Below, piece after piece: positions 27,118 to 61,723 of a stretch of DNA of 64,000 nucleotides. The notes under the pieces were generated by a model. It ran no database searches. It had not been told where the DNA came from and worked only from the letters and a program-made list of their open reading frames with translations. The stretch's first letter is position 1. Every line of letters starts with the position of its first letter. Made by a program: the position numbers and the translations under genes. Where the stretch lies: positions 83,287 through 147,286 of IMG/VR virus record IMGVR_UViG_3300031143_000003; one strand, given 5' to 3'. The DNA comes from a virus. Taxonomy: Duplodnaviria; Heunggongvirae; Uroviricota; Caudoviricetes.

Positions 27118-27178
27118 TGTGTCTCCAATATACCTACCCTAATCTACTTAGGATATCGTATATAAATATACAACATAC

Positions 27179-31220: not shown

Positions 31221-31248
31221 ATGTTTAAATATAAGAAAAAAAGTTGAA
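31221..31248 (-). promoter_or_regulatory. Short copy of the conserved early-type intergenic element upstream of primase
   Basis: atgtttaaatataagaaaaaaagttgaatt shares the aaatataag core and the downstream cttattttc box with the copies at 51-62 kb. It sits between the GIY-YIG and primase genes. Confidence 0.45.
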
Positions 31249-31692
31249 TTATGAAAATTTTATGGTGCTTATTTTCTCGAATGTTTGTTCTGTTAATCTA
31301 ACTCTGGCGAAGCGCCTAGGGCCTATGCAATCATTGTAAAAATCTGATTTTGCTGAAACATGGAATCGGTGGTGGATGTTTTCCTCAAGATAGTTTACCT
31401 GTCCCTTTGTTTCACCAAGTATCAATATCTCAAATGTGAAGTTGGATTTACCGAGTTTAGCTATATCTGAATTCAGTAGCTTGGATGATCCAGTGTATTC
31501 TCGCCAATTTGAATCCTTTCTAATAACCTTTCTGCGAGTTTTGCCTGGTACCTTTATTCGTCGAGTTGTACCAAAGTATTTTCTACCGACGTATTTTTTT
31601 CCAGTTTGATTGTTTGTTATTAAGTAAACAAAACCAAACATGTCTTCTGGGGTTTCACTCAGAATTGACCCATTATATAACCAATGTGACAT
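31249..31692 (-). CDS. GIY-YIG family endonuclease (free-standing, Seg-like homing endonuclease candidate)
   Basis: 147 aa. GFVYLITN...GKKYVGRK (GIY...YIG-like) with downstream conserved R/E/N positions. Inserted between primase and a structural gene. Confidence 0.6.
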   Translation of the reverse strand: MSHWLYNGSILSETPEDMFGFVYLITNNQTGKKYVGRKYFGTTRRIKVPGKTRRKVIRKDSNWREYTGSSKLLNSDIAKLGKSNFTFEILILGETKGQVNYLEENIHHRFHVSAKSDFYNDCIGPRRFARVRLTEQTFEKISTIKFS

Positions 31693-43518: not shown

Positions 43519-43578
43519 TGCTCACTCCTATGTTTATTATAAATATCTAATAGGATTGGTTTTAAGCTGTTTGCAATA

Positions 43579-44813: not shown

Positions 44814-44848
44814 TGTACTGTTCCTTTGTTTAATATAAATATATGAAA

Positions 44849-47698: not shown

Positions 47699-47758
47699 TT
47701 TTCCTCGTTGTATTTTTTGTTATAGCTAAATATAAGAAAAAAAATTGACATAAAAAAA
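47699..47758 (-). promoter_or_regulatory. Conserved intergenic element (type 2: aaatataag ... ttgacat ... ttattc)
   Basis: ttgttatagctaaatataagaaaaaaaattgacataaaaaaattattc. Confidence 0.45.
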
Positions 47759-48286
47759 TTATTCAGCAAAAAGTTTTTCTTTGAATCCTTCTGGGAATTT
47801 TCCAACGGCTATTCTAGAAAAATATTTTATTTCTGCTTGAACTATTTTCTTATCTTTTTTCCAACGAAGTGTTGCCAGTTTTTTCTTTAACTTGCTTATT
47901 TTTAGGGCAGCCTCATATTTGTATCTGTCCTTTTCTTTCTTGGATAACCTAACTTTTGGCGCTATGACTGTTTTATCAAGTGTACCCTTAAGATCAGGTT
48001 GTTCAGTTCCCTTATGATAAACTGTACCATCACCGTGAACGTAAACCGCCATCCAGTGCCATCCAGCAGGTTTTTTATCTTCTTGACGTTTATGTTGAGA
48101 TGTTTCTGGTGGATCAACCATATCAGCGACACAATGTTGGCATGTTACTGCAGTTGCGTTCTCTCCAACTCTGTCATATCCGCCACATAGTTTACATTCC
48201 ATATATTTGTATAATCTATCCGGACTTTCGTTCCATCTGGTACCAGGCTTGTAATATGAATCGTATGTATTTTCTTCGTTTGCCAT
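47759..48286 (-). CDS. Zinc-ribbon protein with Lys-rich C-terminus (175 aa)
   Basis: CKLCGG...CQHC followed by KK-rich tail. Confidence 0.45.
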   Translation of the reverse strand: MANEENTYDSYYKPGTRWNESPDRLYKYMECKLCGGYDRVGENATAVTCQHCVADMVDPPETSQHKRQEDKKPAGWHWMAVYVHGDGTVYHKGTEQPDLKGTLDKTVIAPKVRLSKKEKDRYKYEAALKISKLKKKLATLRWKKDKKIVQAEIKYFSRIAVGKFPEGFKEKLFAE

Positions 48287-49329: not shown

Positions 49330-49392
49330 ATGTATGATATAATATGTTTAATGTAAATTAATAGACCAGTTGTCTTGATCTATTATAAATAT

Positions 49393-49891: not shown

Positions 49892-50093
49892 AGTTTAATT
49901 GTTTTGGTTTGATTGTTAATTTGAATTATTGATTGTAATTACAGCGAAGCTGTATTTATTAATATATTATTTTCAGATATATTAATGTTATTAGGATATT
50001 AATAGATATTATATAATAACTAGTAATAAATAATTATGTTGTAAATATATTAATATTTTTTGACTCGGTAAAATGTTTTTCAACTTATTTTCA
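49892..50093 (-). promoter_or_regulatory. ~200-bp AT-rich intergenic region with reiterated ATATTAAT-like motifs (promoter cluster or origin candidate)
   Basis: Largest non-coding gap in the window. Repeated tatattaat / gatattaata / aatatattaata motifs. Confidence 0.4.
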
Positions 50094-50327
50094 TTATTTT
50101 GTTGAATTATTTTCAAATAGGTAGGCATCAATGTATATATGAATCAAATGACGCTTGTCTTCAATGGTCAATTGCTTTTCCATGATCTCTCCAATATACC
50201 TAGATTCATTGTCGCACATTATAATTGTTTCAGACATCGTATATAGATTTGATATTCCTTCAGCACCATTGATTGTCCAAGCACATTTGATTGTATCAAT
50301 ATTGATATATTGTTTGTTTGCACCCAT
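50094..50327 (-). CDS. Hypothetical protein (77 aa)
   Basis: ORF in the early-gene block. Confidence 0.4.
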   Translation of the reverse strand: MGANKQYINIDTIKCAWTINGAEGISNLYTMSETIIMCDNESRYIGEIMEKQLTIEDKRHLIHIYIDAYLFENNSTK

Positions 50328-51233: not shown

Positions 51234-51268
51234 TTGTTATTTGTTATTTGTTATTTGTTATTTGTTAT
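51234..51268 (-). repeat. Heptanucleotide tandem repeat (TTGTTAT)x5 immediately 5' of the nucleotidase start codon
   Basis: ttgttat repeated five times at 51234-51268. It appears to be an expansion of the tttgtttaatttgttat part of the conserved intergenic element. Confidence 0.9.
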
Positions 51269-51348
51269 TTATAGTTAAATATAATCATAATCGATTAACC
51301 CGGAAAATAAATTTAACATTATTTTCAAAAGTTATTAACAATTTCTAT

Positions 51349-51699
51349 TTAACTGTGCATTTGATCGACTAGCATAATTAATCGTTTCTTTGCATCAGCG
51401 AGATCGGAAATAAGGATTTTTCTAATGTAGTATTCTAAATCGGTCTCCAATATGCTAGAGTATGCTCTAATTCTGTCTCGAGTAAATGCGATATCTTTAC
51501 ATAACATATCATGCATAATATCAGCGTCTAATTTATCGTTGGTTTCCGCTTGAATCGGAAGCTGATCCGAATCGTCAGCTAATTGCTGTATAAGCGCCTC
51601 TGATCGATCGCTAAAATACCGTTCAATTGATGTTGAGTCCAATGCACTCCAATGAGCCATTATAAATTCAGATGTGTTTGATTCTGTATTGTTTTCCAT
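51349..51699 (-). CDS. Hypothetical protein
   Basis: The track ORF 51349..51738 begins inside the conserved intergenic element (MLIFTYNQSNKPT). The start is reassigned to MENNTES. Confidence 0.45.
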   Translation of the reverse strand: MENNTESNTSEFIMAHWSALDSTSIERYFSDRSEALIQQLADDSDQLPIQAETNDKLDADIMHDMLCKDIAFTRDRIRAYSSILETDLEYYIRKILISDLADAKKRLIMLVDQMHS

Positions 51700-51794
51700 A
51701 GTAGGTTTGTTTGATTGGTTATAAGTAAATATAAGCATAATAATTTAACCGGAACAATCTTGGACTGTTTATTTTCAAAAGTTATTAACAATCT
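51700..51794 (-). promoter_or_regulatory. Conserved ~90-bp intergenic element (type 1: ...ttataagtaaatataagcat...aaccggaacaatc...ttattttcaaaagttattaacaat)
   Basis: One of at least 12 near-identical copies. This copy and those at 52828, 57009, 57729 and 60661 (51234-51345 also resembles the type-1 pattern) share the same two halves. Confidence 0.55.
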
Positions 51795-52208
51795 CTATTT
51801 GTCAAAATGATCTCGAGAGAGCTCTTCTATTCTATACTTAGCATGGCTTATAACCGATGAGGCTTTCCTATGGTGTTCTGCTACCTCTACTACGTTTTCA
51901 AGTTCCTCTGTAAGCATTTCTCTTACATACTGGTCTACGTATATTTTAACTAAGTAACTATGGAGCTCTTTAGCTTCAGTTGAAGTCGATGGCTGGTGTA
52001 TTGTATTTAATAACCTGTCATGCAATATATTCCGTTTATTTCCCTTTAGCCTATAGAAGAGGTTCCATCCAGCTTCTATGTCTTCTACATGCATTATTAC
52101 ACTATACTCTGCTAAGTATTCATCTAGAGATATCTGATTATCCATACGGTATGTCTGATCCCATTTGATCATTAGCTCTATAGCTTCTTCGTGTATATCT
52201 ATCGCCAT
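51795..52208 (-). CDS. Hypothetical protein (137 aa)
   Basis: ORF preceded by the AACTAAAACAAGACTAAG-ATG leader motif. Confidence 0.45.
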   Translation of the reverse strand: MAIDIHEEAIELMIKWDQTYRMDNQISLDEYLAEYSVIMHVEDIEAGWNLFYRLKGNKRNILHDRLLNTIHQPSTSTEAKELHSYLVKIYVDQYVREMLTEELENVVEVAEHHRKASSVISHAKYRIEELSRDHFDK

Positions 52209-52219
52209 CTTAGTCTTGT

Positions 52220-52435
52220 TTAGTATCCGTAATTAATTTTAATTGAAAGTGCTTCATTCTTACCTTCCTCACCAAAGGATTCCATTACTTCAATAGCAAT
52301 ATCGGTGTCTAGTTGACATATAATACTTGATACGCCACTTAAAAACGAATCCTTATTCTTTATTTCGTGCTCTTGAAGTAAATCGTTTAGCTCCATTGTA
52401 ATTGTATTTATCTTTCCTAGTCTTTCTCTATCCAT
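52220..52435 (-). CDS. Hypothetical protein (71 aa)
   Basis: ORF with the same conserved leader motif. Confidence 0.4.
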   Translation of the reverse strand: MDRERLGKINTITMELNDLLQEHEIKNKDSFLSGVSSIICQLDTDIAIEVMESFGEEGKNEALSIKINYGY

Positions 52436-52436
52436 C

Positions 52437-52655
52437 TTACTCTTGTTTTAGTTCTTTGATTCTATTTTTAAGATTATCTGATAGGTAGGTTTCTACTTCT
52501 TGATTAAAGTAATTTTCTAATTGCTTCTCCAACTCTTCTATTACTCGCTTGTTAGTAAGCTCCTTAATACGAACATCAATCAGTCTAGCTAAATCATTAG
52601 CTAATCGTTTTGGTACTAGACTTAATAAATTCGCTAATAGTATTTCAGTACTCAT
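52437..52655 (-). CDS. Hypothetical protein (72 aa), paralogue of the partial gene at the right window edge
   Basis: C-terminal NRIKELKQE matches ...NQRIKELKQD of the ORF fragment at 63899-64000. Confidence 0.4.
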   Translation of the reverse strand: MSTEILLANLLSLVPKRLANDLARLIDVRIKELTNKRVIEELEKQLENYFNQEVETYLSDNLKNRIKELKQE

Positions 52656-52656
52656 C

Positions 52657-52827
52657 TTAGTCTTGTTTTAGTTTGTTGAATCTATTTATAAAGTAGTAGT
52701 TTATCTCTCCACTATCATCTATAAGCTGGTAAACATCTTCGTCCAATGCAATTACATTGTACTTTGAACCTAATGTCAAATGGTTCTTCCATACGCCTGG
52801 ATCTATGCATTCTACAATTATCATCAT
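52657..52827 (-). CDS. Hypothetical small protein
   Basis: The track ORF 52657..52866 starts in the conserved element (MLIFNYNKLNKPI). Start reassigned to MMIIVEC. Confidence 0.4.
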   Translation of the reverse strand: MMIIVECIDPGVWKNHLTLGSKYNVIALDEDVYQLIDDSGEINYYFINRFNKLKQD

Positions 52828-52922
52828 AATAGGTTTGTTTAATTTGTTATAGTTAAATATAAGCATTATTCTTTAACCGGAACAATCCTATGTGATTATT
52901 TTCAATAAGTTATTAACAATTT
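52828..52922 (-). promoter_or_regulatory. Conserved intergenic element, type 1
   Basis: ggtttgtttaatttgttatagttaaatataagcattattctttaaccggaacaatcctatgtgattattttcaataagttattaacaat. Confidence 0.55.
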
Positions 52923-53285
52923 CTAACGATCACTGCGTTTGAGTATTTGTTTCAGAATAGCCCGATCTGCCATAGATTCAATTAGGTCAGATTCATCTCC
53001 CAATATTGCATGATCCCGGCCTAGTTTATATGCCGGCAAATATTCATCTGCAATAAATTTGATGTTTGCATCTGCCCAACCCCATAATTCGTCGTGCCAA
53101 CCTTGTCCGTACCAATCTAATAATATCTTTTCATCTTGTGTCATAGTTTTGTCCGTGTTAGTTTGTTGTTTTTTAATGCAATTTTCACATAAAACTGCGT
53201 TATGTAATCCTCTACCGATAATGCAGCGACATTGGTTACATAATGTAGCGCCATACCCGTTGTTGAATTTATGTATTGCTTTCAT
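52923..53285 (-). CDS. Cys-rich zinc-binding hypothetical protein (120 aa)
   Basis: CNQCRC...CENC. Confidence 0.45.
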   Translation of the reverse strand: MKAIHKFNNGYGATLCNQCRCIIGRGLHNAVLCENCIKKQQTNTDKTMTQDEKILLDWYGQGWHDELWGWADANIKFIADEYLPAYKLGRDHAILGDESDLIESMADRAILKQILKRSDR

Positions 53286-53303
53286 ATTGAATGTCTATTA
53301 ATG

Positions 53304-53765
53304 TTAAAATGAACCAGGAGCGACTTGCATAACCGTTAATCCTCTATCTCTCCACATTTTCACGACCTTATCGCGATCATCGAATATACATAGTACATCA
53401 GATTGATTTGGAAATTTAGCGTCGAACCAATCTGATTTGAGCTTATCGTCGGGTGTGAATGAATTTAGTGGTCTCATTGTGATACTGTCAAATGGTACAT
53501 TGAATTTATCAAGCCATTTTGTTGTAGTGTCCTTTGTTCCAGTACATCGACCAGAAAATATCGCAATATTGAAACCTTGTGATTTGAGTGTTTGTGCCAT
53601 GATTATGACTGGATTATTGGGCTTATCCATTTGGATATTATTTGGATCAAAAAACTTAGTCCAATTAATCTTCCCATTGTCCTTTGTGCTAAAGGATCGT
53701 CGATCATCAATAAGTGCTAGGGTGCCATCTAGATCGAAAATTACCCATTTGTTTGAATTGCTCAT
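53304..53765 (-). CDS. Polynucleotide 3'-phosphatase, homologue of the T4 Pnk C-terminal HAD phosphatase domain (stand-alone)
   Basis: 153 aa. VIFDLDGTLA (DxDGT). IAIFSGRCTGTKDTTTKWL versus T4 VVVSGRESGTKEDPTKYY. C-terminus IFDDRDKVVKMWRDRGLTVMQVAPGSF versus T4 [27 protein letters not shown]. Confidence 0.85.
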   Translation of the reverse strand: MSNSNKWVIFDLDGTLALIDDRRSFSTKDNGKINWTKFFDPNNIQMDKPNNPVIIMAQTLKSQGFNIAIFSGRCTGTKDTTTKWLDKFNVPFDSITMRPLNSFTPDDKLKSDWFDAKFPNQSDVLCIFDDRDKVVKMWRDRGLTVMQVAPGSF

Positions 53766-53833
53766 AGTTGATATGTTTAATTGTTATAAGTAAATATAAG
53801 CAATTAAAATGACATAAAAAAATATTATATCAA

Positions 53834-54232
53834 CTATTTTATAATTAATATATTTGCCAATTCGATGGCCTTAAGGTACTGGCCATTTTCATCTTCAACT
53901 GTCCAAAAAACAATTGACTTTTCCTCATGGAATATACAAATTTTGGATTTATCTCCGTCTGTTATGTAACAGTCATATGCATCATCGCATTCTGGAATCA
54001 ATACCCACCAAGTATGAATAATCTCGGTATCGTTTAACATTACTTCTATGTACTCTTCGTGGATTGTAAATGCAACTTCAGATTTGAATGATTCATCTAA
54101 TTGATAAGCCATACCATTCCAATCATACAGGTTGGTCACATCTGATATATAGGTTGTCTGTGCGGTACATACTGTCGATAATAACATGAATATACATAAT
54201 GCCGCCTTAATCTTTTTCATCTTTTGCTCCAT
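53834..54232 (-). CDS. Secreted hypothetical protein (signal peptide)
   Basis: 132 aa. N-terminal MKKIKAALCIFMLLSTVCTAQ. Confidence 0.5.
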   Translation of the reverse strand: MEQKMKKIKAALCIFMLLSTVCTAQTTYISDVTNLYDWNGMAYQLDESFKSEVAFTIHEEYIEVMLNDTEIIHTWWVLIPECDDAYDCYITDGDKSKICIFHEEKSIVFWTVEDENGQYLKAIELANILIIK

Positions 54233-54281
54233 GGTTTAAATCTGTTCATTAATAAATATACATGGTGCTAATTATTGTTGA

Positions 54282-54355
54282 GTGGACCCTACTGGACTCG
54301 AACCAGTGACCTTAACATTATGAGTGTTCTGCTCTAACCAACTGAGCTAAGGGTC
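54282..54355 (-). tRNA. tRNA with CAU anticodon (Met or Ile2/lysidine type)
   Basis: Minus strand GGACCCTTAGCTCAGTTGGTTAGAGCAGAACACTCATAATGTTAAGGTCACTGGTTCGAGTCCAGTAGGGTCCA. 7-bp acceptor, D-arm GCTC/GAGC with GG, anticodon loop CTCATAA, T-arm ACTGG-TTCGAGT-CCAGT. 74 nt, no encoded CCA. Confidence 0.8.
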
Positions 54356-54439
54356 CGGGTGATGGTTGTCTAACTTTAATTATGGGTGGAAAACCCAACT
54401 AAAGACCTTAGTTTGCTGGTACCATCAACAGCTATACTG

Positions 54440-55297
54440 TTATTTGCCGGTTACGGACTTAAATAACTGTGGTACTACGCCGTATGTTGGCAATTTACCA
54501 TCCCATTTCTCGATCATCTGTTGTTGAACCAATAGATCGGTCAATGCTGTGTTTTTCTGCTGGAAAGCATAACGTTCGGCCTCTGCATTAATTCGCATAG
54601 CTTTCGCATCTCCCTCTGCTTCTGCAACAATTTTCTCTGCATCTGCTGTAGTTTGAGCCAATTCCTCTTGCTTACGTAATGCCATTTGAGTAGCATTAAC
54701 CTTCGCTTCGATGTTCGACACAACCGATTTTGGAAGTCTCAACTCATTTAATAATACAACTTGTTCGATGACAAATCCTTCTGGCTCGAGAATCGTTCTA
54801 ATCGCATTTTCTGACTCAGTTTGGAAGTCATTACGACGCTCATATAATTCCGAAGCTGAATAGTTTGCAGCTGTTGAGTTAAACGCATCACGCATATAGT
54901 TCTTGACGATCGTTTTTTCTAACTCTCCAATTGGTCGACGATATTTCTTAAATATACTTACAACATTTTCAGCTGGAGTATAATAGTTTATAGATACATC
55001 GAATGCAACAACTAGTCCATTACTCGTCGTTATTCTAAATTCCTCATTTTCATCGGAATGACGAGTGTCTTGCTTAGTGTAAACTGCGTTTTGAACATAC
55101 GTTGGTACTTCATATACCTCTGTCGTGAATGGATTGTACCAAACTGCTCCAGTAACTGCTGTTACGTTTTGCACTCCCTTTTCATTTCCATATAGATTAA
55201 CTCTAATTCCTTCGTGTCCTGCGTCAATACGCTCATATCCACATGAAGATAACAATAACGTTGCTACCCCTAATACTAATAAAATTTGCTTTTTCAT
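54440..55297 (-). CDS. SPFH/band-7 (stomatin/prohibitin/HflK-like) domain lipoprotein
   Basis: 285 aa. Lipoprotein signal MKKQILLVLGVATLLLSSC. C-terminal ...NATQMALRKQEELAQTTADAEKIVAEAEGDAKAMRINAEAERYAFQQ is typical of SPFH family coiled-coil/A-E-rich tails. Confidence 0.55.
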   Translation of the reverse strand: MKKQILLVLGVATLLLSSCGYERIDAGHEGIRVNLYGNEKGVQNVTAVTGAVWYNPFTTEVYEVPTYVQNAVYTKQDTRHSDENEEFRITTSNGLVVAFDVSINYYTPAENVVSIFKKYRRPIGELEKTIVKNYMRDAFNSTAANYSASELYERRNDFQTESENAIRTILEPEGFVIEQVVLLNELRLPKSVVSNIEAKVNATQMALRKQEELAQTTADAEKIVAEAEGDAKAMRINAEAERYAFQQKNTALTDLLVQQQMIEKWDGKLPTYGVVPQLFKSVTGK

Positions 55298-55301
55298 ATA
55301 A

Positions 55302-55466
55302 CTACCTGTTGATTAATTTAATACCGGAATAAATTGTTAAAAGTACGACTAAGAATCCGGCGATATTCTTAGTTGTATTCGGTTCACTAATTAGGTCGAG
55401 CCCAATTGTTATCATAAATATTGCTACAAACAATGTTATGATTATTCCCATTATTTTTTCGATCAT
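55302..55466 (-). CDS. Small two-TM membrane peptide (54 aa), possible NfeD-like partner of the SPFH protein
   Basis: MIEKIMGIIITLFVAIFMITIGLDLISEPNTTKNIAGFLVVLLTIYSGIKLINR. Start overlaps the upstream gene's stop (ATGA) and it ends 5 nt before the SPFH start. Not in the ORF track (under 60 aa). Confidence 0.35.
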   Translation of the reverse strand: MIEKIMGIIITLFVAIFMITIGLDLISEPNTTKNIAGFLVVLLTIYSGIKLINR

Positions 55467-56143
55467 TTTGCGTATGTTAAAATGTTACCTTGGCCAGTAT
55501 TCTTGCCAAATCTTCCGTCTTTTACGCATGAACCGTTACTATAAAGTGTGTCGATTCCTGCAATCGTTTTTGTTCCAGCATTGATTATGCCTTCGCAATT
55601 GTGAATGTGTCCAAATAATACTAGTTTTGGACGAACAGTCAATAATCGTTTTGCTAAAGCCGAACATCCACAGTATTCTAATGCTCCGAATCTATCAGTT
55701 GATAGGTCCAATATGCCCTTAGGTGGTCCGTGCACAATAACAATGTTCGTGTTATCTGGAATTTCAGCCCAAAGTCGACTTAATTTTGATCGATTTTTCA
55801 TGAACGACCAGTCTCCGAATGTTGGAGAGAACGGTGATCCCCATATGTTAATACCATCGATCGTTACTGATTCATTTTCCAAATAGACGATACCATTTGC
55901 CTTGAATAGGTCCCTATCGACAAGTCCATATTCGATACTTGAGTCGTGATTTCCAGCAACGAATATCTTGTGCTTGATTTGTAGACTACTAAACCATGTT
56001 ATAAACGAACGAACCTCAGGCTCATTTGCATATTGATTTCTAGGGTTCGAACAGTCTCCTGAAAAGATCACCATGTCAATATCTGATGGTATATTCAAGT
56101 GACCATGATACGTGTGAGTATCGCTTATGTGCCAAATTCTCAT
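55463..56143 (-). CDS. Calcineurin-like metallophosphoesterase
   Basis: 226 aa. HISDTH, GD, GNHD, VHGPP, GHIH motifs. Confidence 0.7.
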   Translation of the reverse strand: MRIWHISDTHTYHGHLNIPSDIDMVIFSGDCSNPRNQYANEPEVRSFITWFSSLQIKHKIFVAGNHDSSIEYGLVDRDLFKANGIVYLENESVTIDGINIWGSPFSPTFGDWSFMKNRSKLSRLWAEIPDNTNIVIVHGPPKGILDLSTDRFGALEYCGCSALAKRLLTVRPKLVLFGHIHNCEGIINAGTKTIAGIDTLYSNGSCVKDGRFGKNTGQGNILTYAK

Positions 56144-56412
56144 TAGTCTTGTCTTTCTAGGGTGTATATTGAATTGAGTGTGTCGATCGTTAGTGATCCA
56201 TCAACGCCAAACTGAACTGTGTTTATGACGGTGGTCTGCCAAACATATTCGTTTGTAAATGGACCGAGTATTAGACTTCTACCAATTTTTATGCCGTCGA
56301 TACCGATGATAAGTTCATCGAATGTGTCGTCGTCTTTCCATGATATAAATCCAATTTGATCAGATAGTTTGGTTAAACCGTCTCGTGATCTAGTTAATTT
56401 CCATTCTGTCAT
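56143..56412 (-). CDS. Hypothetical protein (89 aa)
   Basis: ORF, start/stop coupled with neighbours. Confidence 0.4.
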   Translation of the reverse strand: MTEWKLTRSRDGLTKLSDQIGFISWKDDDTFDELIIGIDGIKIGRSLILGPFTNEYVWQTTVINTVQFGVDGSLTIDTLNSIYTLERQD

Positions 56413-56413
56413 G

Positions 56414-56662
56414 TTAGTATGCTTTTATGAATGTTCCTTCTTTACTCGATAAAATTGATAGGCTGAATTCCTTATCGAGGTGCTTAGTAATACTTGATAT
56501 GTCCATAGATCGCAATGCCATCATAAACATATTATAGTTACTGTCTCCGCCGTTTTTGACAAAATACGAAAAAAGCAATTGCACATTCAAATTACTTGAA
56601 TTGCGCATTGCAATGTATTCTTCCCTAGACATAGCTAATATTACCGTGACCAACCATTCCAA
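56414..56662 (-). CDS. Hypothetical protein (82 aa)
   Basis: ORF. 38-nt overlap with the upstream gene suggests the start may be further downstream. Confidence 0.35.
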   Translation of the reverse strand: MEWLVTVILAMSREEYIAMRNSSNLNVQLLFSYFVKNGGDSNYNMFMMALRSMDISSITKHLDKEFSLSILSSKEGTFIKAY

Positions 56663-57008
56663 CTTCCAATGTCGGAACTAATCCATCGCTATGTAAATCT
56701 CCGTATGATTCGTTCATGAACCAGTTTTCAGAATCAGAAACTGTTCTACTGAATTCCTTGAAGATATCGTCTAATGTGAAACCTTCTCCGAATCTGTAGC
56801 ACATTGTAGCAACCACATTTCTAAATGCTGTTTCCGAACTTGGATTGCTTTCATCATCGGCTAACTTGCGAAGTTTACCACCCAATTCCATAATAATTGT
56901 CTTCATGTTATCAGCAACTGTATCGTTGTGGCTGTACATTTCGCTTGAATGTGGCTTTGTAATTTCGATTCCGTAAATGAATTGATTTGGTTTTTTAGTT
57001 CTGCTCAT
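56625..57008 (-). CDS. Hypothetical protein (127 aa)
   Basis: ORF preceded by the conserved element, with AAACCTACTTATT-ATG leader. Confidence 0.45.
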   Translation of the reverse strand: MSRTKKPNQFIYGIEITKPHSSEMYSHNDTVADNMKTIIMELGGKLRKLADDESNPSSETAFRNVVATMCYRFGEGFTLDDIFKEFSRTVSDSENWFMNESYGDLHSDGLVPTLEVGMVGHGNISYV

Positions 57009-57120
57009 AATAAGTAGGTTTAGTTAGTGTTAATTTGTTATTTATAGTATAAATATAAGCAATATTTTCCCAACCGGAAAACGTTTTTACATTTATTTTC
57101 AAAAGTTATTAACAATCTAA
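57009..57120 (-). promoter_or_regulatory. Conserved intergenic element, type 1 (contains TATAAATA on the coding strand)
   Basis: ...tatttatagtataaatataagcaatattttcccaaccggaaaacg...ttattttcaaaagttattaacaat. A near-identical copy lies at 57729-57840. Confidence 0.55.
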
Positions 57121-57279
57121 TTCTACAGGCCTAATATATATGCAGTCAACATTATTGCTACGTATAAAAAACCGCTAACGTCTATTTTTGTGTGTTGTTT
57201 CATATGAATATAAATATGATTGGCTAGCCGAAGTGTATTAATTCAATGTTACTAGATTGTTAACATTATGATACATTAT

Positions 57280-57519
57280 CTAGGCCTTTGTTTTTCCGAA
57301 AACTGCGTAGTATTTGCCATCCCAAAATTTGGATAGTCTGTCTTTTCCAGTTAGGAAATATGGATTGGCAGATGAACTAAATGCTGAGCTGTAATATCCT
57401 CTGTTTTTGCGATAGTCGTATGTAATACCATTCAACTTACAAACGAAGGTTATAATCTCAGTGTATGTTGCTCCACGTTTTGTTGCAACGTATTCTAATA
57501 CTTGTGATTTGATTGTCAT
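57280..57519 (-). CDS. Hypothetical protein (79 aa)
   Basis: ORF. Confidence 0.4.
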   Translation of the reverse strand: MTIKSQVLEYVATKRGATYTEIITFVCKLNGITYDYRKNRGYYSSAFSSSANPYFLTGKDRLSKFWDGKYYAVFGKTKA

Positions 57520-57530
57520 AATTGGATTGT

Positions 57531-57728
57531 TTACTTTATGAAATTACTATATACAAAACTTGCTACAGCTGCAATTGCTACAACAGATACGACCAATAGA
57601 ATTGGAATCCAGATTGGCGATAGAACCCATGTCCATGACCATGAAATTAGGTTTGTTAACTTCAAGATAACGAATACAATCAAAACGATTGATGATGAGT
57701 TGATTCCTGATTTTGCTTGATTTTGCAT
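57531..57728 (-). CDS. Small two-TM membrane protein (65 aa)
   Basis: Hydrophobic ORF (IVLIVFVILKL...WIPILLVVSVVAIAAVASFVY) directly after a conserved intergenic element. Confidence 0.45.
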   Translation of the reverse strand: MQNQAKSGINSSSIVLIVFVILKLTNLISWSWTWVLSPIWIPILLVVSVVAIAAVASFVYSNFIK

Positions 57729-57840
57729 GTTGCGTAGGTTTAGTTAGTGTTAATTTGTTATTTATAGTATAAATATAAGCAATATTTTCCCAACCGGAAA
57801 ACAATTGATCATTTATTTTTAAAAGTTATTAACAATTTAA
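57729..57840 (-). promoter_or_regulatory. Conserved intergenic element, type 1 (near-identical to 57009-57120)
   Basis: About 70 bp is identical to the 57009 copy. Confidence 0.55.
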
Positions 57841-57980
57841 AGTATGATAATTACTGATTGGGCTGCTGCCGTACAATCTAATAAAGTCCGATTTAAGAAT
57901 AGTTTCTACTTCTGAGTCTGGCCATACCATTGAAACCATATTGCTGTACACGTCTAATACTGTCATATTTTGTTGATTGG

Positions 57981-58259
57981 TTATATTGATTTTATTGTAC
58001 TAAGAATTTGTCGTAAATCGGAGTTTATCGCCTTAAGGTCTGCATAAATGCGCCCACATTCAAAACTTAATTGACTAAGCTCTAAATCCTGCTTACCAAC
58101 CCTGCCGGCATGTGTTTGAATTGCGTCAAACCGATCGGCTATTTGTTCTAAATCAGTCGATTCATATTCAAATTGATCAACTTCTGGCGGTGTAGATCCA
58201 GTTTGACCACTTGGTTCAGATGACGTTCGAGTCATTGTACTAATCCATCGTTTTTTCAT
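57981..58259 (-). CDS. Hypothetical protein (92 aa)
   Basis: ORF. Confidence 0.4.
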   Translation of the reverse strand: MKKRWISTMTRTSSEPSGQTGSTPPEVDQFEYESTDLEQIADRFDAIQTHAGRVGKQDLELSQLSFECGRIYADLKAINSDLRQILSTIKSI

Positions 58260-58260
58260 A

Positions 58261-58491
58261 TTAATCTTTTTTTGTTATGAAGTTACTAGATAATTTGCGT
58301 AGCGCCGAAGATAAATGTTCGTTCAAATTTGAACCAGTTCTAGCCATTTCTTCACAGATCAATTCTCGAATTTCGTATAATTCTGCGTTAGATAGATCTT
58401 CCATATTATTTATCTGCTTTAAATCCAGAGATTGGCTTTCTTTCAATATCCAAATCAGATATTGTATGTTCGATTGCGTCCATTCTGTCAA
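58261..58491 (-). CDS. Hypothetical protein (76 aa; start may be at internal Met 58404)
   Basis: Overlaps the upstream ORF by 86 nt in another frame. The internal start MEDLSNAE would remove the overlap. Confidence 0.35.
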   Translation of the reverse strand: MTEWTQSNIQYLIWILKESQSLDLKQINNMEDLSNAELYEIRELICEEMARTGSNLNEHLSSALRKLSSNFITKKD

Positions 58492-58684
58492 GAATAATTG
58501 CTAGTGCTTCGTTTGTACTTTCAACGATCGTCTTATCAGCAGCCTCGAGAGATTTGATCTTTGGATTGCTCTTAACGTTTAGCTTGTTCCAAACCATGAA
58601 ACCAAATATTGTTGGAGCTAATACTAATCCAATACCAGATGCTTTACCTAGCATGTCTAAAAATAATGTTAATTCTGTTTCCAT
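58406..58684 (-). CDS. Small membrane protein (92 aa)
   Basis: TM segment GIGLVLAPTIFGFMVW. Follows a conserved intergenic element. Confidence 0.45.
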   Translation of the reverse strand: METELTLFLDMLGKASGIGLVLAPTIFGFMVWNKLNVKSNPKIKSLEAADKTIVESTNEALAIILDRMDAIEHTISDLDIERKPISGFKADK

Positions 58685-58763
58685 AATGTTGTTTGATATG
58701 TTAATTAATAAATGTAAATATAAGCATTAAGTTTGACACGGGAAAATTATAGTGAACTTATTT
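58685..58763 (-). promoter_or_regulatory. Conserved intergenic element, type 2
   Basis: ...aaatgtaaatataagcattaagtttgacacgggaaaattatagtgaacttattttcaaat. Confidence 0.5.
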
Positions 58764-58979
58764 TCAAATTAGTTTCATATCAACCAACTTGTTTACGACA
58801 ACTGCTACGTCCCTATGCGTTGCAATAACCGATCCATCTATTTCTAGTACCCATTTTCTACTGACTCTACTTAGCCAGATGTTGATGTCTCGATCGTCAT
58901 GATCAACTGATACAAATGTGTCGTTCACTGCGTTTGCAGATATAATGTCTTCGACTAATCGAGTTGCTGCATTTTCCAT
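58764..58979 (-). CDS. Hypothetical protein (71 aa)
   Basis: ORF. Confidence 0.4.
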   Translation of the reverse strand: MENAATRLVEDIISANAVNDTFVSVDHDDRDINIWLSRVSRKWVLEIDGSVIATHRDVAVVVNKLVDMKLI

Positions 58980-58984
58980 AATAG

Positions 58985-59191
58985 TTATTTTATAAATTCA
59001 AGTGTTGATGGTAGATCTACGAGTTCAAAATCTCGTCCGTTCCATCTAGCCGAGTGGCCGTTGTTCAATTCAACGAGTGGAAAATTTCCATCGTGAACCA
59101 GTACTACTTCAACATTGACGTAGTTTCTTGCGGTTGAGGAGCATGGCACGATATATTGTGCTGAATCTCCAATTTGGATATCATTTTTCAT
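58985..59191 (-). CDS. Hypothetical protein (start reassigned to MKNDIQIG)
   Basis: The track ORF 58985..59245 overlaps the upstream gene by 47 nt. The internal Met removes the overlap. Confidence 0.35.
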   Translation of the reverse strand: MKNDIQIGDSAQYIVPCSSTARNYVNVEVVLVHDGNFPLVELNNGHSARWNGRDFELVDLPSTLEFIK

Positions 59192-59198
59192 ATTGATT

Positions 59199-59498
59199 TT
59201 ATATGTGTTGTTTCCATTCTGGGTGAAGGTTATGGTGAGCATCATCTAAATATACGATGGTTTTGAAATCGCAGTATGGATCATCGATACCCAATTCCCT
59301 TGCTGTTAATTGGAATATGATACCTTTCTTAGTTAAGCTACCAAGAACTCCTCTAATAGATTTAGCTGGAATTCCAGTTTGTCTAACTAGATCTGCATCT
59401 GAAACATCGCTGAATCCAGGCTCAGCGTATAATCCTTGTATTAGTTCAGTTAGTACCTGTGTTTCTAATGTTGTGATGTTGAGATTGTGATTTTCCAT
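59199..59498 (-). CDS. Hypothetical protein (99 aa)
   Basis: ORF directly downstream of a conserved element. Confidence 0.45.
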   Translation of the reverse strand: MENHNLNITTLETQVLTELIQGLYAEPGFSDVSDADLVRQTGIPAKSIRGVLGSLTKKGIIFQLTARELGIDDPYCDFKTIVYLDDAHHNLHPEWKQHI

Positions 59499-59600
59499 GT
59501 GGTAGGTATTTAGTTATTGTTAATTTGTTATAGTTAAATATAAGCATTAAGTTTGACATAAAAAAACTTTATGTTAACTATTTTCAAATTAATTTAAGTG
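59499..59600 (-). promoter_or_regulatory. Conserved intergenic element, type 2
   Basis: ...gttatagttaaatataagcattaagtttgacataaaaaaactttatgttaactattttcaaat. Confidence 0.5.
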
Positions 59601-59903
59601 ATCCCAGTAGGAATCGAGCCAGTATTCTTCAGTTACCTAATATTCAAACTTGGTTTTGATGGACTATTCTCTTCCCGCTAATAGCTTCCAATTTCCAGTA
59701 TCACCACGGGGAGGTGTTTGATTGATACCATTTTTAATATTATTCTACTAGTTCGTATACGTCGTATGGTTCGTTAACTCCATTTGTGAATCTGTTAACT
59801 GTAATCACCTTGTACTTGTCGCCGTTTATGTAAATGAAATCGTTCATAATGTGTAAGTTTTAATTTGTATAAGTAAATATAATCATTTAGTCTCGAGCTA
59901 CAA

Positions 59904-60299
59904 TTATGACGCTGGTCCGATTATTGATTCCATTTGCTCTGCCATTCGATTGATAACTGTTTGGCGTTTAACTTCAAGATTTATAAGGCGTTCCAGCTTT
60001 GATGAATAAAAAGCAAGGTGCTTTGTGTTTAGCTGTTCGACAGCCTGATTAACTTTGTGCTGATAAAAACCAATCTTGCCCTGGTAGTGTGCTGTCTCCG
60101 TCTCTTCAACTTCGTACGTTATATACCTAGTTTCGTCTGTGTCAATCTGAACGATTCGTTTAACGTGTTGGTCCAATGAAATATCGTGACCTAATGACTG
60201 AACTGGTACATGAGCACCTTCAGCGAGTAATCCATACTGATTAGCATCGATGATAAATGTTTGGTCGAATTTTGTTGTGATCTGGTAGGTAGTAGTCAT
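59904..60299 (-). CDS. Hypothetical protein
   Basis: The track ORF 59904..60350 starts inside the conserved element (MSNLMLIFNYNKLNKST). Start reassigned to MTTTYQ. Confidence 0.45.
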   Translation of the reverse strand: MTTTYQITTKFDQTFIIDANQYGLLAEGAHVPVQSLGHDISLDQHVKRIVQIDTDETRYITYEVEETETAHYQGKIGFYQHKVNQAVEQLNTKHLAFYSSKLERLINLEVKRQTVINRMAEQMESIIGPAS

Positions 60300-60378
60300 A
60301 GTTGATTTGTTTAATTTGTTATAGTTAAATATAAGCATTAAGTTTGACATAAAAAAACTTTTATGTACTTATTTTCAA
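60300..60378 (-). promoter_or_regulatory. Conserved intergenic element, type 2
   Basis: gttgatttgtttaatttgttatagttaaatataagcattaagtttgacataaaaaaacttttatgtacttattttcaat. Confidence 0.5.
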
Positions 60379-60660
60379 TTAAAATATCAACATACTAACT
60401 GGAACATTGTAACTGTTACCAGCATCATCTACAGCGACTATCTTAGTGCTATTGATCTTCGTAATAACAAAGTCGGTATTTCTACATTTTTTGTGATCGA
60501 TTCCAACTTTCATTCCAACTCTTAGTAGTGCTTTAGTTGAACGATCAGATGTTGATTTCTTCGCTTTAATTGAGCCGATAACCAAGATGTTTAGGCTACG
60601 TAATTGCTCGATTGGAAGATCTGCGGTTGAAATTGCTTTAACGATTTGTGCGTAAGTCAT
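60379..60660 (-). CDS. Hypothetical protein
   Basis: The track ORF 60379..60699 starts inside the conserved element (MLIFNYNKLNKPT). Start reassigned to MTYAQIVK. Confidence 0.45.
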   Translation of the reverse strand: MTYAQIVKAISTADLPIEQLRSLNILVIGSIKAKKSTSDRSTKALLRVGMKVGIDHKKCRNTDFVITKINSTKIVAVDDAGNSYNVPVSMLIF

Positions 60661-60760
60661 AGTAGGTTTGTTTAATTTGTTATAGTTAAATATAAGCATA
60701 ATAATTTAACCGGAACAATCCTATGCAATTATTTTCAATAAGTTATTAACAATTTGGAAT
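60661..60760 (-). promoter_or_regulatory. Conserved intergenic element, type 1
   Basis: agtaggtttgtttaatttgttatagttaaatataagcataataatttaaccggaacaatcctatgcaattattttcaataagttattaacaat. Confidence 0.55.
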
Positions 60761-60764
60761 GTTG

Positions 60765-60857
60765 TAAGGGAGGCAGGACTCGAACCTGCGCGATAAGGAT
60801 TTGTTAGCCTTATCTCTCTTATTTGCGTATAGCGTTTCCCAGTTTCGCCACTCCCTT
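60765..60857 (-). tRNA. tRNA-like element (93 nt) with canonical acceptor stem and T-arm but atypical internal arms; possible class-II tRNA or tRNA-like RNA
   Basis: Minus strand AAGGGAG...GCAGG-TTCGAGT-CCTGC-CTCCCTT-A. Perfect 7-bp acceptor and 5-bp T-stem with TTCGAGT loop. A 3-bp D-stem (GCG/CGC) with GG-containing loop, and a 7-bp hairpin GATAAGG-CTAACAAAT-CCTTATC. No standard 5-bp/7-nt anticodon arm could be placed. Confidence 0.4.
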
Positions 60858-60871
60858 ATTTGCCACTAATA

Positions 60872-61294
60872 TTATTCTAATTCTACTAAGGCTTTAACTA
60901 ACGCCTTCAATTTAGAAAAGTTGACTACCACGAATCCAGTTGAATCTACAACATGGAACGGTTCAAGACCGCCAACATCAGTTGACGTTAGATCTAATCC
61001 ATGTCGATCGAATGTATAGTATATAAATCCTGGTGCACCTGGTTCCGGTTCCTGATATATTTCGCTGAATCCAATACTGAGTAGGGATTTGGGCGTAATG
61101 TCCTGATTCTCGACTTGCTCCAAATGTGCATCAATGGCTTCATCAAATAATTCTTGCGAGTATGTTAACGTAAACGCAGCGTCGCATGTTGCAGCTTGCC
61201 AATCAGATTCATCTTGTTCCAATTGAGTTGGTCTTGGACGCGTAAACGTTTTTGTTTGTCTAAGCTCGTCCATTGTTCGTTTTTTACTTAACAT
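60872..61294 (-). CDS. Hypothetical acidic protein (140 aa)
   Basis: ORF. Confidence 0.45.
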   Translation of the reverse strand: MLSKKRTMDELRQTKTFTRPRPTQLEQDESDWQAATCDAAFTLTYSQELFDEAIDAHLEQVENQDITPKSLLSIGFSEIYQEPEPGAPGFIYYTFDRHGLDLTSTDVGGLEPFHVVDSTGFVVVNFSKLKALVKALVELE

Positions 61295-61296
61295 AA

Positions 61297-61536
61297 TTAG
61301 TATCGTTTTGGTATAAGATTAACAATTGGACCCTCGCTACCACTTGCCACATTCGCGGTCAATATGATACTGAGCAAGTAATCCTTTTCACTGATCGTCG
61401 CTTCGCTAACTATCAAGCTTAATAATTCGGCATTGTTCGTACATGCTTCAACTTTTGCATTCCAACTTTCGTTCATATGAAACGGCATGCGATAAATCTC
61501 GCCTCGTAGATAACCTATTGTAAATTTGTTTTGCAT
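61297..61536 (-). CDS. Hypothetical protein (79 aa)
   Basis: ORF downstream of a conserved element. Confidence 0.4.
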   Translation of the reverse strand: MQNKFTIGYLRGEIYRMPFHMNESWNAKVEACTNNAELLSLIVSEATISEKDYLLSIILTANVASGSEGPIVNLIPKRY

Positions 61537-61620
61537 AATGTGTGTGTTTAATTATTATATGTAAATATAAGCAATAAAATTGACATGGTAAAACATTCGT
61601 CAACTTATTTCGCAATCGCC
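61537..61620 (-). promoter_or_regulatory. Conserved intergenic element, type 2 variant
   Basis: ...ttatatgtaaatataagcaataaaattgacatggtaaaacattcgtcaacttatttcgcaat. Confidence 0.45.
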
Positions 61621-61723
61621 CACCGATAATAACCTAAGCGGAGACCGCCATACCAGGACAGATTCCAGGCAGGTCTATCTTATAAGTATTACAATAACCC
61701 TCGATCGTTAGCGTCTCACGATG

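Follow-up and report, generated by a model that had tools for sequence, protein, structure and literature searches.

The question raised by this locus is what some 15 repeated stretches of about 90 bases do ahead of small genes in a 64-kb piece of phage DNA (the whole stretch analysed, hereafter the window). The phage is a T4-like myovirus of 147 kb with Gp23, Portal_T4, gp25 and SegE domains, and it encodes a ribosomal protein bS21. It probably infects Bacteroidota, and its host most likely belongs to the Flavobacteriia. A preliminary description had read the repeats as early or middle promoters with a conserved 5' leader. They are not coding sequence but most likely an ordinary feature of the genome, and from their sequence we consider it quite probable that they are early-class promoters for host RNA polymerase, comparable to the PeSLs of T4-like phages but without the stem-loop.

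In a profile HMM search of the 64-kb window (nhmmer), the element turns up in full 14 times and in part once (59856-59891). All copies are intergenic on the minus (coding) strand and span the interval from the upstream stop codon to the next ATG (Table 1). No match lies within coding sequence in the window, and the one plus-strand match is insignificant (E 0.44) and overlaps a copy. All 14 positions listed in the preliminary description carry the element, each being the first base after a minus-strand start codon; that list left out a fifteenth copy (50020-50094). Three further type-1 copies are present in the same phage immediately outside the window on its right. Of the 147-kb genome, the full search took in the 64-kb window and about 10 kb to its left. 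With up to two mismatches allowed, the core GTTAAATATAAGCA occurs 13 times, on a single strand, whereas shuffled sequences average 1.6 occurrences and none of 100 shuffles reaches 13; GCTTATATTTA is exact in 10 copies.

The two subtypes recognised earlier are borne out by ATTGTTAATAAC, which is found exactly six times, only at type-1 copies, where it directly follows the upstream stop codon. With an HMM built from type-2 copies only, each of the six type-1 copies is recovered (E 4e-9 to 6e-3), and a type-1 HMM recovers four to five type-2 copies; circular model building therefore does not explain the family. The copies had been called near-identical, which is true of a core of about 25-35 nt and within subgroups, but not of the whole element, whose pairwise identity ranges from 41 to 93% with only two pairs at 93%. 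The genes flanking similar copies are unrelated to one another.

Table 1. Copies of the repeated element in the window, with the parts of the type-1 reference copy (E, nhmmer E value).
Feature	Coordinates	Strand	Downstream gene	Remarks
Type-2 element	61537..61628	-	79-aa gene starting 61536	Exact core GCTTATATTTA; blocks TTGCGAAATAAG / TTTTAC / CATGTCAA / core / CATATAAT; E 1.4e-15
Type-1 element, reference copy	60661..60755	-	93-aa gene starting 60660	Starts right after tRNA-Leu (60764-60857)
ATTGTTAATAAC of reference copy	60742-60753
TTGAAAATAA of reference copy	60729-60738
-35-like TTGTTC of reference copy	60713-60718
-7/-10-like TATATTTA of reference copy	60687-60694
TATAAC of reference copy	60679-60684
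Putative start of reference copy	near A60681
Putative leader of reference copy	60661-60681
Type-2 element	60300..60391	-	131-aa gene starting 60299	Stop codon TAA of upstream gene overlaps first base of TTGAAAATAA box; E 1.2e-15
Partial element (core GATTATATTTA and leader only)	59848..59891	-	35-aa ORF	HMM positions 53-88 only; E 0.019
Type-2 element	59499..59594	-	99-aa gene starting 59498	Core-to-ATG 36 nt; E 2.6e-14
Type-2 element	58685..58780	-	92-aa gene starting 58684	E 2.7e-15
Type-1 element, TTTTCC-ggtt-GGGAAAA variant	57729..57840	-	65-aa gene starting 57728	Core-to-ATG 41 nt; repeat D7, 107 nt, 93% identical to 57014-57120
Type-1 element, twin of 57729-57840	57009..57120	-	127-aa gene starting 57008	Genes flanking the twins unrelated; E 1.9e-14
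Type-2 element, weak upstream box	53766..53847	-	PNKP-type phosphatase gene 53304-53765	E 6.6e-10
Type-1 element	52828..52922	-	56-aa gene starting 52827	Repeat D2, 93% identical to 60661 copy
Type-1 element	51700..51794	-	116-aa gene starting 51699	E 4.1e-17
Type-1 element, core GATTATATTTA	51234..51344	-	NT5C-type nucleotidase gene 50784-51233	Leader lengthened by (ATAACAA)n; TRF 51216-51270, period 7, 7.7 copies
Type-2 element, core ATATATTTA	50020..50094	-	98-aa gene starting 49891, after ~150-nt AT-rich leader	Repeat D3 reference copy; E 1.8e-7, type-2 HMM E 1.9e-8
Type-2 element, core TCTTATATTTA	47699..47788	-	Gene cluster starting 47695/47698	E 7.6e-12
Type-2 element, core TCTTATATTTA	31221..31285	-	DNA primase gene 30315-31220, 5 nt before its ATG	SbcCD-like nuclease gene comes after primase gene; E 4.5e-11

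In the aligned copies the conserved blocks keep fixed positions relative to TATATTTA. This box is contained in an invariant core, (T)GCTTATATTTA-nn-TATAAy, with an A-rich box, TTGAAAATAA, about 45 nt upstream of the core and a weak -35/-33-like hexamer (TTGTTC, TTTTCC, TTTACC or TTTTTT) 17-18 nt upstream of the core box. The spacer holds TTCCGGTT in type-1 copies and an imperfect inverted repeat, AAGTTGAC...GTCAAACTT, in type-2 copies. A G-poor leader without a Shine-Dalgarno sequence follows the core, and the distance from core to ATG is 25-26 nt in seven of the 15 copies (5, 30, 31, 36, 41, 41, 42 and 150 nt in the others). The ending AAACAAACCTACT-ATG, said to close every copy, is exact in two and present as one- to few-base variants in three, and is not shared by all. 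The microsatellite reported in the 51234 copy is there.

Because four ORFs read the core in frame as MLIF(N/T)Y... and the sequence is many times repeated, one could take the elements for real N-terminal coding sequence or for copies of a MITE-like transposable element. We regard such a non-regulatory origin as hardly credible, and frame analysis already contradicts it: outside these four copies the corresponding DNA either lies in another frame or is interrupted by stops, and the four MLIFNYNK... extensions are ORF-caller artefacts, as the preliminary description had proposed. Conservation also reaches far upstream of any ATG, the copies all point the same way and keep a set distance from the start codon, and none lies inside a gene or on the other strand. 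Reading the aligned copies by eye, we noted no terminal inverted repeats or target-site duplications.

Strict orientation, intergenic placement and a three-block geometry of the -35/-10 type support the reading as promoter plus leader. The elements resemble Bacteroidota primary-sigma promoters (-33 TTTG / -7 TAnnTTTG; PMC6847099) in having an 8-bp TA..TTT. box about 20 nt below a T-rich or TTG -33, and AT-rich sequence upstream; they resemble Bacteroidota leaders in a length of a few tens of nucleotides, the lack of a Shine-Dalgarno sequence and A at -3. In F. johnsoniae, transcription starts 4-5 nt downstream of the -7 box TAHHTTTG, leaders average 33 nt and lack a Shine-Dalgarno sequence, initiation is helped by A at -3, and G-5 is nearly invariant (PMC6847099). 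In the phage, TATATTTA would be the -10/-7 box, a Bacteroidota TAnnTTTG with A for the final G, and the TTGAAAATAA box may act like an UP element that helps polymerase to bind. Transcription would start 5-6 nt past TATATTTA and thus produce an unstructured, G-poor leader of about 21 nt that has no Shine-Dalgarno sequence and, with A at -3, would be of the kind used by Bacteroidota ribosomes. Early in infection the elements would most likely be read by the host's own RNA polymerase, unmodified and carrying its primary sigma factor.

Several observations speak against the host polymerase. The nearly invariant G at -5 of F. johnsoniae promoters is replaced by A in every copy, type-2 copies have TTTT(T/A/C) in place of the -33 TTG, and the promoter reading assigns no role to the conserved TATAAy two bases past the box. 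The canonical TTTG-N19-21-TAHHTTTG has no occurrence on the coding strand, and a generic sigma-70 scan does not single out the elements (70 sites found versus 88.5 expected). A phage sigma factor or activator could sit outside the 64-kb window and the ~10 kb at its left. An alternative explanation is that the elements are middle and not early promoters, read by a phage-specified sigma factor, MotA/AsiA-like activator or polymerase. This would agree with the departures at G-5 and -33, with a window that covers under half of the 147-kb genome, and with a core that, unlike Bacteroidota promoters, runs past the box on both sides (GCT upstream, nn-TATAAy downstream) and is longer than a normal -10 box. 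The core also has TGCTT, as does the Mot box. T4 middle promoters combine a MotA box, TGCTT, at -30 with a -10 box 11-13 bp away, and both they and the PmSLs of phage nt-1 share with the elements a TGCTT upstream of an AT-rich -10-like box. However, in the elements TGCTT abuts TATATTTA and lies 6 nt from TATAAC, so that the Mot-box geometry fails, as the preliminary description had said, and a T4 MotA middle promoter was rejected on this spacing and on the lack of MotA/AsiA domains in the window. For the 76 window ORFs (64 kb of the 147-kb genome), Pfam reports neither a sigma factor or polymerase nor MotA or AsiA. The elements also have no conserved hairpin such as N4-type virion polymerases need; RNAalifold predicts no pairs on type-2 copies, and z-scores for folding single copies run from -1.7 to +0.8. 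Furthermore, the host enzyme must read some gene class on entry, and we saw no other candidate early motif.

Other phages bear on the same choice. A search for the element recovered its geometry in phages with known Flavobacteriales hosts, Flavobacterium phage immuto (TTGCAT-N17-TATATTTA-ga-TATAGT and others like it) and Chryseobacterium phage MA9V-2 (TTGAAAATA at -45, TTTTCA, ATGTCG, GCTTATATTTA-ca-TATAAT; matched by the window HMM at E 1.8e-12), and in the IMG/VR contig L044 (~16 copies with near-identical cores). The same core in otherwise unrelated Flavobacterium and Chryseobacterium phages points to a common host enzyme, although L044 encodes a sigma-70-family protein among its small genes, which would favour a phage factor. 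Judged by its baseplate protein, Mel-JY01 is the closest relative (48% amino acid identity); its equivalent cassettes, aaaaaaagaCTTGCAT-N17-TATATTTG...aacaacctaacaggaacactacg-ATG, show the TTGCAT-N17-TATATTTG that is canonical for Bacteroidota, together with a conserved leader that is similar, which again argues against a phage factor. Overall, we find it unlikely that such a factor reads the elements. A further point for the promoter reading is that, ahead of the primase gene, the window and four relatives alike keep 5-6 nt between box and ATG.

The host-polymerase reading is also supported by host-polymerase promoters of the crAss-like Cellulophaga phage phi14:2, whose middle promoters were mapped by primer extension ahead of rifampicin-sensitive genes and are described as an extended motif of three parts that include -35- and -10-like blocks (bioRxiv 10.1101/2020.03.07.982082). 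Its middle and late promoters, the middle ones reading TTGACT-N17-TATATTTG and TTGCAT-atgtcaaat...-TAGTTTTG, share with the elements the A-tract, TTGnnn, N17 and a TAnnTTT. box, as well as intergenic sense placement, sometimes beside tRNA genes. Unlike the elements, the phi14:2 boxes end in G and drive middle and late genes, including structural ones, and phi14:2 is a podovirus in which a virion polymerase transcribes the early genes, whereas the elements precede early-type genes of a T4-like myovirus.

The genes downstream suggest early timing. They are of early type (nucleotide metabolism, repair, primase, ORFans), whereas structural genes are preceded by a different motif, ATATTTATA, which occurs 11 times on the minus strand and not on the plus strand. 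Translation signals differ in parallel: an SD-like core precedes 23 of 42 genes outside the early region versus 3 of 40 within it, in keeping with the earlier statement that the leaders lack a Shine-Dalgarno sequence, and 32 of the 40 early-region genes have A at -3.

PeSLs, which comprise an AT-rich region, a stem-loop, an early promoter, a Shine-Dalgarno sequence and a start codon, occur in hyperplastic regions (PMC4122927). Like the PeSLs of T4-like phages (PMC2839356, PMC4122927), the elements are repeated composite intergenic cassettes in which an AT-rich region is joined to a putative early promoter and a translation start, are concentrated among the ORFans of a plastic region of a T4-like genome, and show high identity between copies independent of the flanking genes. 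They lack the stem-loop and the Shine-Dalgarno sequence, and their putative promoter is of Bacteroidota and not of sigma-70 type. It is possible, though we hold this only tentatively, that in addition to and compatibly with promoter function they act as mobile regulatory cassettes, serving as substrates for homologous recombination that excises, inserts and swaps small ORFan genes, as proposed for T4-like phages. The PeSL definition (PMC4122927) counts in favour, as do the T4-like nature of the phage and the way the elements cluster in an ORFan-rich region and fill its intergenic gaps exactly. The two pairs at 93% identity extend over 99-107 nt, including positions that a promoter need not constrain, between unrelated flanking genes, and a two-gene unit lies between the 57009 and 57729 copies, which form direct repeats at a distance of 720 nt. 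However, the stem-loop that defines PeSLs is absent, and no recombination event was seen: four independent metagenome copies match the window at 100% identity, and searches for a close relative of the early region gave none.

A further question is why there are two subtypes. Their spacer boxes are conserved, partly palindromic and overlap the -35 region, and they could be operators that switch two promoter subclasses; ATGTCAAA stands at the same spacer position in one phi14:2 promoter, and ATGTCGAAA in MA9V-2. We consider this doubtful, as the type-2 repeat has a left arm that shows little conservation and shifts register between copies, no candidate DNA-binding regulator was identified by Pfam in the 76 window ORFs, and the subtypes could reflect descent from two ancestral copies. 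As early-class promoters for host RNA polymerase, the elements would drive short operons that comprise ORFans, the primase, and genes for nucleotide metabolism and repair; if the spacer boxes were operators, the phage would have two early sub-programmes.

Because the window has genes on its minus strand only, coding orientation is used throughout. The repeated stretches between these genes form one family. The sequence GTTAAATATAAGCA, allowing up to two mismatches, occurs 13 times in a single orientation, against a shuffle mean of 1.6, and GCTTATATTTA is exact in ten copies and present as a one- or two-base variant in the remainder. The repeat finder assigns the same sites to families of 54-107 nt, and a profile HMM recovers 14 full copies and one partial copy (59856-59891), with no match within genes and only one insignificant match on the plus strand (E 0.44), which overlaps a copy. 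Separate HMMs were built for the two subtypes to avoid circular model building; the type-2 model retrieves all six type-1 copies (E 4e-9 to 6e-3), and the type-1 model retrieves four or five type-2 copies. Each of the 14 positions listed in the preliminary description proved to be the base after a start codon and to carry an element. The list had overlooked a copy at 50020-50094, and three further type-1 copies lie within 4.5 kb past the right window end, on an identical metagenome contig. To call the copies near-identical was too strong, as whole-element identity ranges from 41 to 93% and only two pairs reach the upper value; the 7-nt microsatellite reported for the copy at 51234 is real. Once corrected for the missed copies and the wider identity range, the original observation and its interpretation both stand.

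The elements fill their intergenic gaps completely, and 13 of the 15 are found at 50.0-61.6 kb, where most of the surrounding ORFs are without a Pfam match. The most similar elements are followed by genes for unrelated proteins, and on that ground we reject gene duplication as the origin of the repeats. The elements are not coding. Only four copies have the ATG within aATGCTTATA in the reading frame of the gene that follows, and these translate as MLIFNYNKLNKPTM or close variants of it; in all others the corresponding DNA is out of frame, is interrupted by stops or lacks the ATG. The N-terminal extensions are thus spurious, as had been proposed, and the element map corrects four gene starts.

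Aligned on the first T of TATATTTA, the copies show a constant architecture. TATATTTA itself is exact in 15 of 15 copies and holds a constant position relative to the other blocks. Every full copy has TTGAAAATAA(g)T at about -45 from the anchor, and the T-rich hexamer at -24 to -19 reads TTGTTC, TTTTCC, TTTTAC or TTTTTT. The spacer is specific to the subtype (CCGGTT in type 1, TGTCAA in type 2), and the core of every full copy is tGCTTATATTTA. In most copies TATAAy follows two bases past the core (three bases in three copies). The A/C-rich, G-poor leader (G fraction 0.072) ends at the ATG; box end and ATG are separated by 25-26 nt in seven copies and by 5, 30, 31, 36, 41, 41, 42 and 150 nt in the others. 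Type-1 copies carry in addition ATTGTTAATAAC, which is exact six times, at type-1 copies only, and begins 0-2 nt past the upstream stop codon. The elements are most likely ordinary but well-organised phage promoter-and-leader cassettes.

The predicted promoter resembles that read by the sigma-A of Bacteroidota. Flavobacterium johnsoniae has TAHHTTTG as its -7 box and begins transcription 4-5 nt past it; its leaders average 33 nt and have no Shine-Dalgarno (SD) sequence, and an A at -3 favours initiation (PMC6847099). TATATTTA has T-12, A-11, T-8, T-7 and T-6, as expected for such a box; however, position -5 is A in all copies, whereas G is nearly invariant in F. johnsoniae (TAnnTTTG), and the full pattern TTTG-N19-21-TAHHTTTG has no occurrence on the window's coding strand. 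At -33, three of the six type-1 copies (60694, 52861 and 51733) have TTGTTC with its TTG 21 nt upstream of the box; in the remaining type-1 copies and in type 2 this hexamer is TTTTCC, TTTACC or TTTTTT, type 2 being without TTG. A sigma-70 scan gave no enrichment for the elements. Less probably, a phage-specified factor may read these putative promoters; Pfam detects no sigma factor, polymerase, MotA or AsiA among the 76 window ORFs, the region examined being the window and about 10 kb past its left end, out of a 147-kb genome. We read the departures from the consensus as tolerated or lineage-specific variation of a single box, since immuto, with its known Flavobacterium host, shares the A variant and phage Mel-JY01 has G in equivalent cassettes.

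Other placements of the promoter were considered. TATAAC is rejected as a -10 box, as no -35-like sequence lies 17 nt upstream and the footprint at the primase gene puts the start directly after TATATTTA. A second promoter with TTGAAA as its -35 box has no -10-like box at the proper distance. On the plus strand, three type-2 copies (59520-59555, 60311-60345 and 58700-58735) contain TTTG-N20-TAAGTTTG, a formal match to the older Bacteroidota consensus aimed away from the genes. This match is probably fortuitous, because TAAGTTTG has a G where the refined F. johnsoniae consensus has virtually none; it is also missing from the other copies, and we reject it as a divergent promoter.

The primase gene gives an indirect indication of where transcription may begin. 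In the window phage and in four relatives from IMG/VR, only 5-6 nt separate the end of the box from the start codon of the primase gene, despite the differing sequences. This footprint is consistent with a start site right after the box and with a leaderless-type message, and it suggests that a leaderless or near-leaderless primase mRNA is conserved across the five related phages.

The same layout recurs in other phages. The window HMM matches Chryseobacterium phage MA9V-2 (E 1.8e-12), in which TTGAAAATA, TTTTCA, ATGTCG and GCTTATATTTA-ca-TATAAT occupy positions identical to those in the window, and several sites of the form TTGCAT/TTGTTT-N17-TATATTTA-nn-TATA(A/G)T lie between genes of Flavobacterium phage immuto. 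The IMG/VR contig L044 has about 16 cassettes of the form TTGnnn-N17-TGCTTATATTTAAGTATAAT before small genes, with the same core as in the window. L044 looks otherwise unrelated to the window phage; a sigma-70-family gene (minus strand, 6773-6036) is found among its small cassette genes, a second motif, CATATTTATATTA, directly precedes other ATGs, and the contig also has an odd stretch rich in G runs. The cassettes of Mel-JY01 read aaaaaaagaCTTGCAT-N17-TATATTTG, which is the canonical Bacteroidota form of a -33/-7 promoter; the leader behind it, aacaacctaacaggaacactacg-ATG, is conserved and similar to the window's ...aaacctac(t/g)-ATG. The middle promoters of phage phi14:2 have been mapped by primer extension, control rifampicin-sensitive genes and were described as an "extended tripartite motif" with -35-like and -10-like blocks (bioRxiv 10.1101/2020.03.07.982082); their sequences include TTGACT-N17-TATATTTG and TTGCAT-atgtcaaat...-TAGTTTTG. 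Our literature search met with no account of the promoters of immuto, Mel-JY01 or MA9V-2. In IMG/VR, neither an exact 26-mer nor a 22-specified-base pattern had a match, and among 185,579 genomes such a pattern gave one chance match only, in a Ktedonobacteraceae MAG.

Coordinates of promoter-like boxes, late-type motifs, tRNAs and conserved initiation regions
Feature	Record	Positions	Strand
Late-type motif	window	57206-57217, 49381-49392, 44831-44842, 43535-43546, 27158-27169, 20920-20931, 8378-8389, 5517-5528, 803-814	minus
-7-like box before primase gene	window	31221-31236	
-7-like box before primase gene	L120 (IMG/VR contig)	~9920-9937	
-7-like box before primase gene	L121 (IMG/VR contig)	~6180-6200	
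-7-like box before primase gene	L122 (IMG/VR contig)	~9975-10000	
-7-like box before primase gene	L123 (IMG/VR contig)	~8590-8616	
Cassettes with core TGCTTATATTTAAGTATAAT	L044 (IMGVR_UViG_3300006802_000089)	9973-2590 and 2420-2290	minus
Loci bearing on the Mel-JY01 host	L126 (Mel-JY01), record positions	129476-129990, 130242, 140673, 143155, 143750, 147282	
Locus bearing on the Mel-JY01 host	L124	22183-22410	
ACTAAAACAAGACTAAG-ATG (repeat families D8, D10, D16 of the repeat finder)	window	ATGs at 63897, 63792, 62933, 52655, 52435, 52208	minus
tRNA-Leu(CAA)	window	60764-60857	minus
tRNA-Met(CAT)	window	54282-54356	minus

Two promoter types known from T4-like phages invite comparison. The promoter-early stem-loop (PeSL) consists of an AT-rich region, a stem-loop, an early promoter, an SD and a start codon; it is found among ORFans and marks indel boundaries (PMC4122927). 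Like PeSLs, the elements are composite, lie among ORFans, have a sequence identity independent of the flanking genes, and combine an AT-rich upstream region and a predicted early-type promoter with an end at the next gene's start codon; unlike PeSLs, they have neither a conserved stem-loop nor an SD. Folds of the 50 nt upstream of the core in single copies were not significant (z-scores +0.8 to -1.7), and RNAalifold predicted no pairs for eight type-2 copies, the type-1 copies being folded singly only. On these grounds we reject a conserved hairpin, whether as PeSL stem-loop, as terminator or as the hairpin of an N4-type virion-polymerase promoter, which the elements do not show. The metagenome copies retrieved are all 100% identical to the window and offer no indels or gene swaps to compare with the cassettes, and searches of the phage collection and IMG/VR found no close relative of the element-rich region. 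By analogy, the elements may work like PeSLs, yet we do not file them in the PeSL family. The second comparison is with the T4 middle promoter, in which the Mot box TGCTT is centred at -30, 11-13 bp upstream of the -10 box. In the window TGCTT abuts TATATTTA and lies 6 nt from TATAAC; this spacing bears out the earlier rejection of middle-promoter geometry and, together with the lack of MotA and AsiA by Pfam in the 76 window ORFs, leads us to reject a MotA-box reading.

The phage itself has T4-like hallmark domains, with gp25 and a SegE-type endonuclease detected by Pfam in the window and genes for terminase, T4-type portal, prohead protease, ribosomal protein bS21 and gp23 to its left. ENA contig ERZ27317736 k141_160938 (147 kb) and three other assemblies match the window at 100% identity; samples that contain the contig are ENA ERZ27317736 and ERZ27317745 and JGI 3300031140 and 3300031687. 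When 24 kb were compared with the phage collection by megablast there was no nucleotide match, tblastn with the PNKP-type phosphatase found distant phages only, and a search for loci related to the SPFH protein gave only remote matches; the baseplate protein shares 48% identity with its counterpart in Microcystis phage Mel-JY01 and 41% with the one in immuto. The host may belong to the Bacteroidota: relatives or look-alikes infect Flavobacterium and Chryseobacterium, and SD sequences are lacking before early genes. The bS21 gene (111 aa; 16389-16724 of L133, the sequence beyond the left window end, about 6 kb past that end) lies between the prohead protease and gp23 genes, the same arrangement as in bS21 phages predicted to infect Bacteroidetes (PMC9723584). 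Mel-JY01 was deposited as a Microcystis phage, yet it has canonical Bacteroidota promoters, cTTGCAT-N17-TATATTTG, and a GC content of 35.6% in its first 50 kb, and a bS21 gene lies among its structural genes, as in the phages with predicted Bacteroidetes hosts; the cyanobacterial host given for it merits re-examination.

The genes that follow the elements are ORFans and those for an NT5C-type nucleotidase, a PNKP-type phosphatase and a primase with an SbcCD-like nuclease, and element-headed operons also include genes for a DenV-type glycosylase, a metallophosphatase and an SPFH protein. Another motif, (T/G/C)ATATTTATA(T/A)(T/A), stands before several structural operons, which suggests that the elements belong to an early or pre-late class. 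In the window this late-type motif occurs 11 times, 10 of them intergenic, and all are on the minus strand. Two sit within early elements (57057 and 57777), two come after GC-rich terminator hairpins, and some lie 1-3 nt before an ATG. The motif is also found past the left window end and before late genes in Mel-JY01.

Translation signals differ along the window as well: an AGGA, GGAG or GAGG core precedes 3 of 40 genes at 47.7-64 kb versus 23 of 42 at 1-47.7 kb, and late genes downstream, such as that for gp23, have AGGAG 7-8 nt before the ATG. F. johnsoniae ribosomes without bS21 acquire the capacity for SD use (PMC9976891), so that remodelling of the ribosome might be needed for late translation. 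It is conceivable, though we think it improbable, that T4-like Bacteroidota phages with a bS21 gene run a two-tier translation programme of which the cassettes form one half. A-variant promoters would then give early mRNAs with G-poor, SD-less leaders suited to native host ribosomes with a sequestered anti-SD, and ATATTTATA-type sites would give late structural mRNAs with a strong AGGAG, efficiently translatable only once phage bS21 had remodelled the ribosome, freeing or re-tuning the anti-SD; this design would include the loss of G throughout promoter boxes and leaders.

Several other features were observed in this region. A conserved translation-initiation region of about 17 nt, ACTAAAACAAGACTAAG-ATG, precedes internal genes of early operons, with three more occurrences just past the right window end. 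Non-coding stretches of 95-160 nt flank elements at 59595-59740, 61629-61723, 57121-57279 and 49892-50040, where ARAGORN and Rfam were negative. The first two look partly tRNA-like by eye, and the third has a 25-codon hydrophobic ORF directly after the late-type motif CATATTTATATTcatATG. Even with a permissive threshold Rfam detected two tRNAs only; a type-1 element begins a few bases past the 3' end of tRNA-Leu, and a short TATATTTATTA box follows tRNA-Met. Large tail-fibre-like genes contain in-frame tandem repeats at 23561-23740 (54-nt units, in a 1199-aa protein) and 15056-16730 (units of about 480 nt, in a 2011-aa protein without family match).

These results do not overturn current understanding. 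They provide a ready-made map of predicted promoters and transcription units for large uncultured bS21-encoding T4-like phages, a group abundant in aquatic Bacteroidota. These phages appear to use TATATTTA as a version of the host -7 box, beside the canonical TATATTTG in a close relative, a variation directly testable with purified Flavobacteriia polymerase. As compact, strong-looking, SD-less expression units, the cassettes could serve as genetic parts for Flavobacteriia. If they also mediate PeSL-type shuffling, this would extend the mechanism past the T4-like phages of Proteobacteria.
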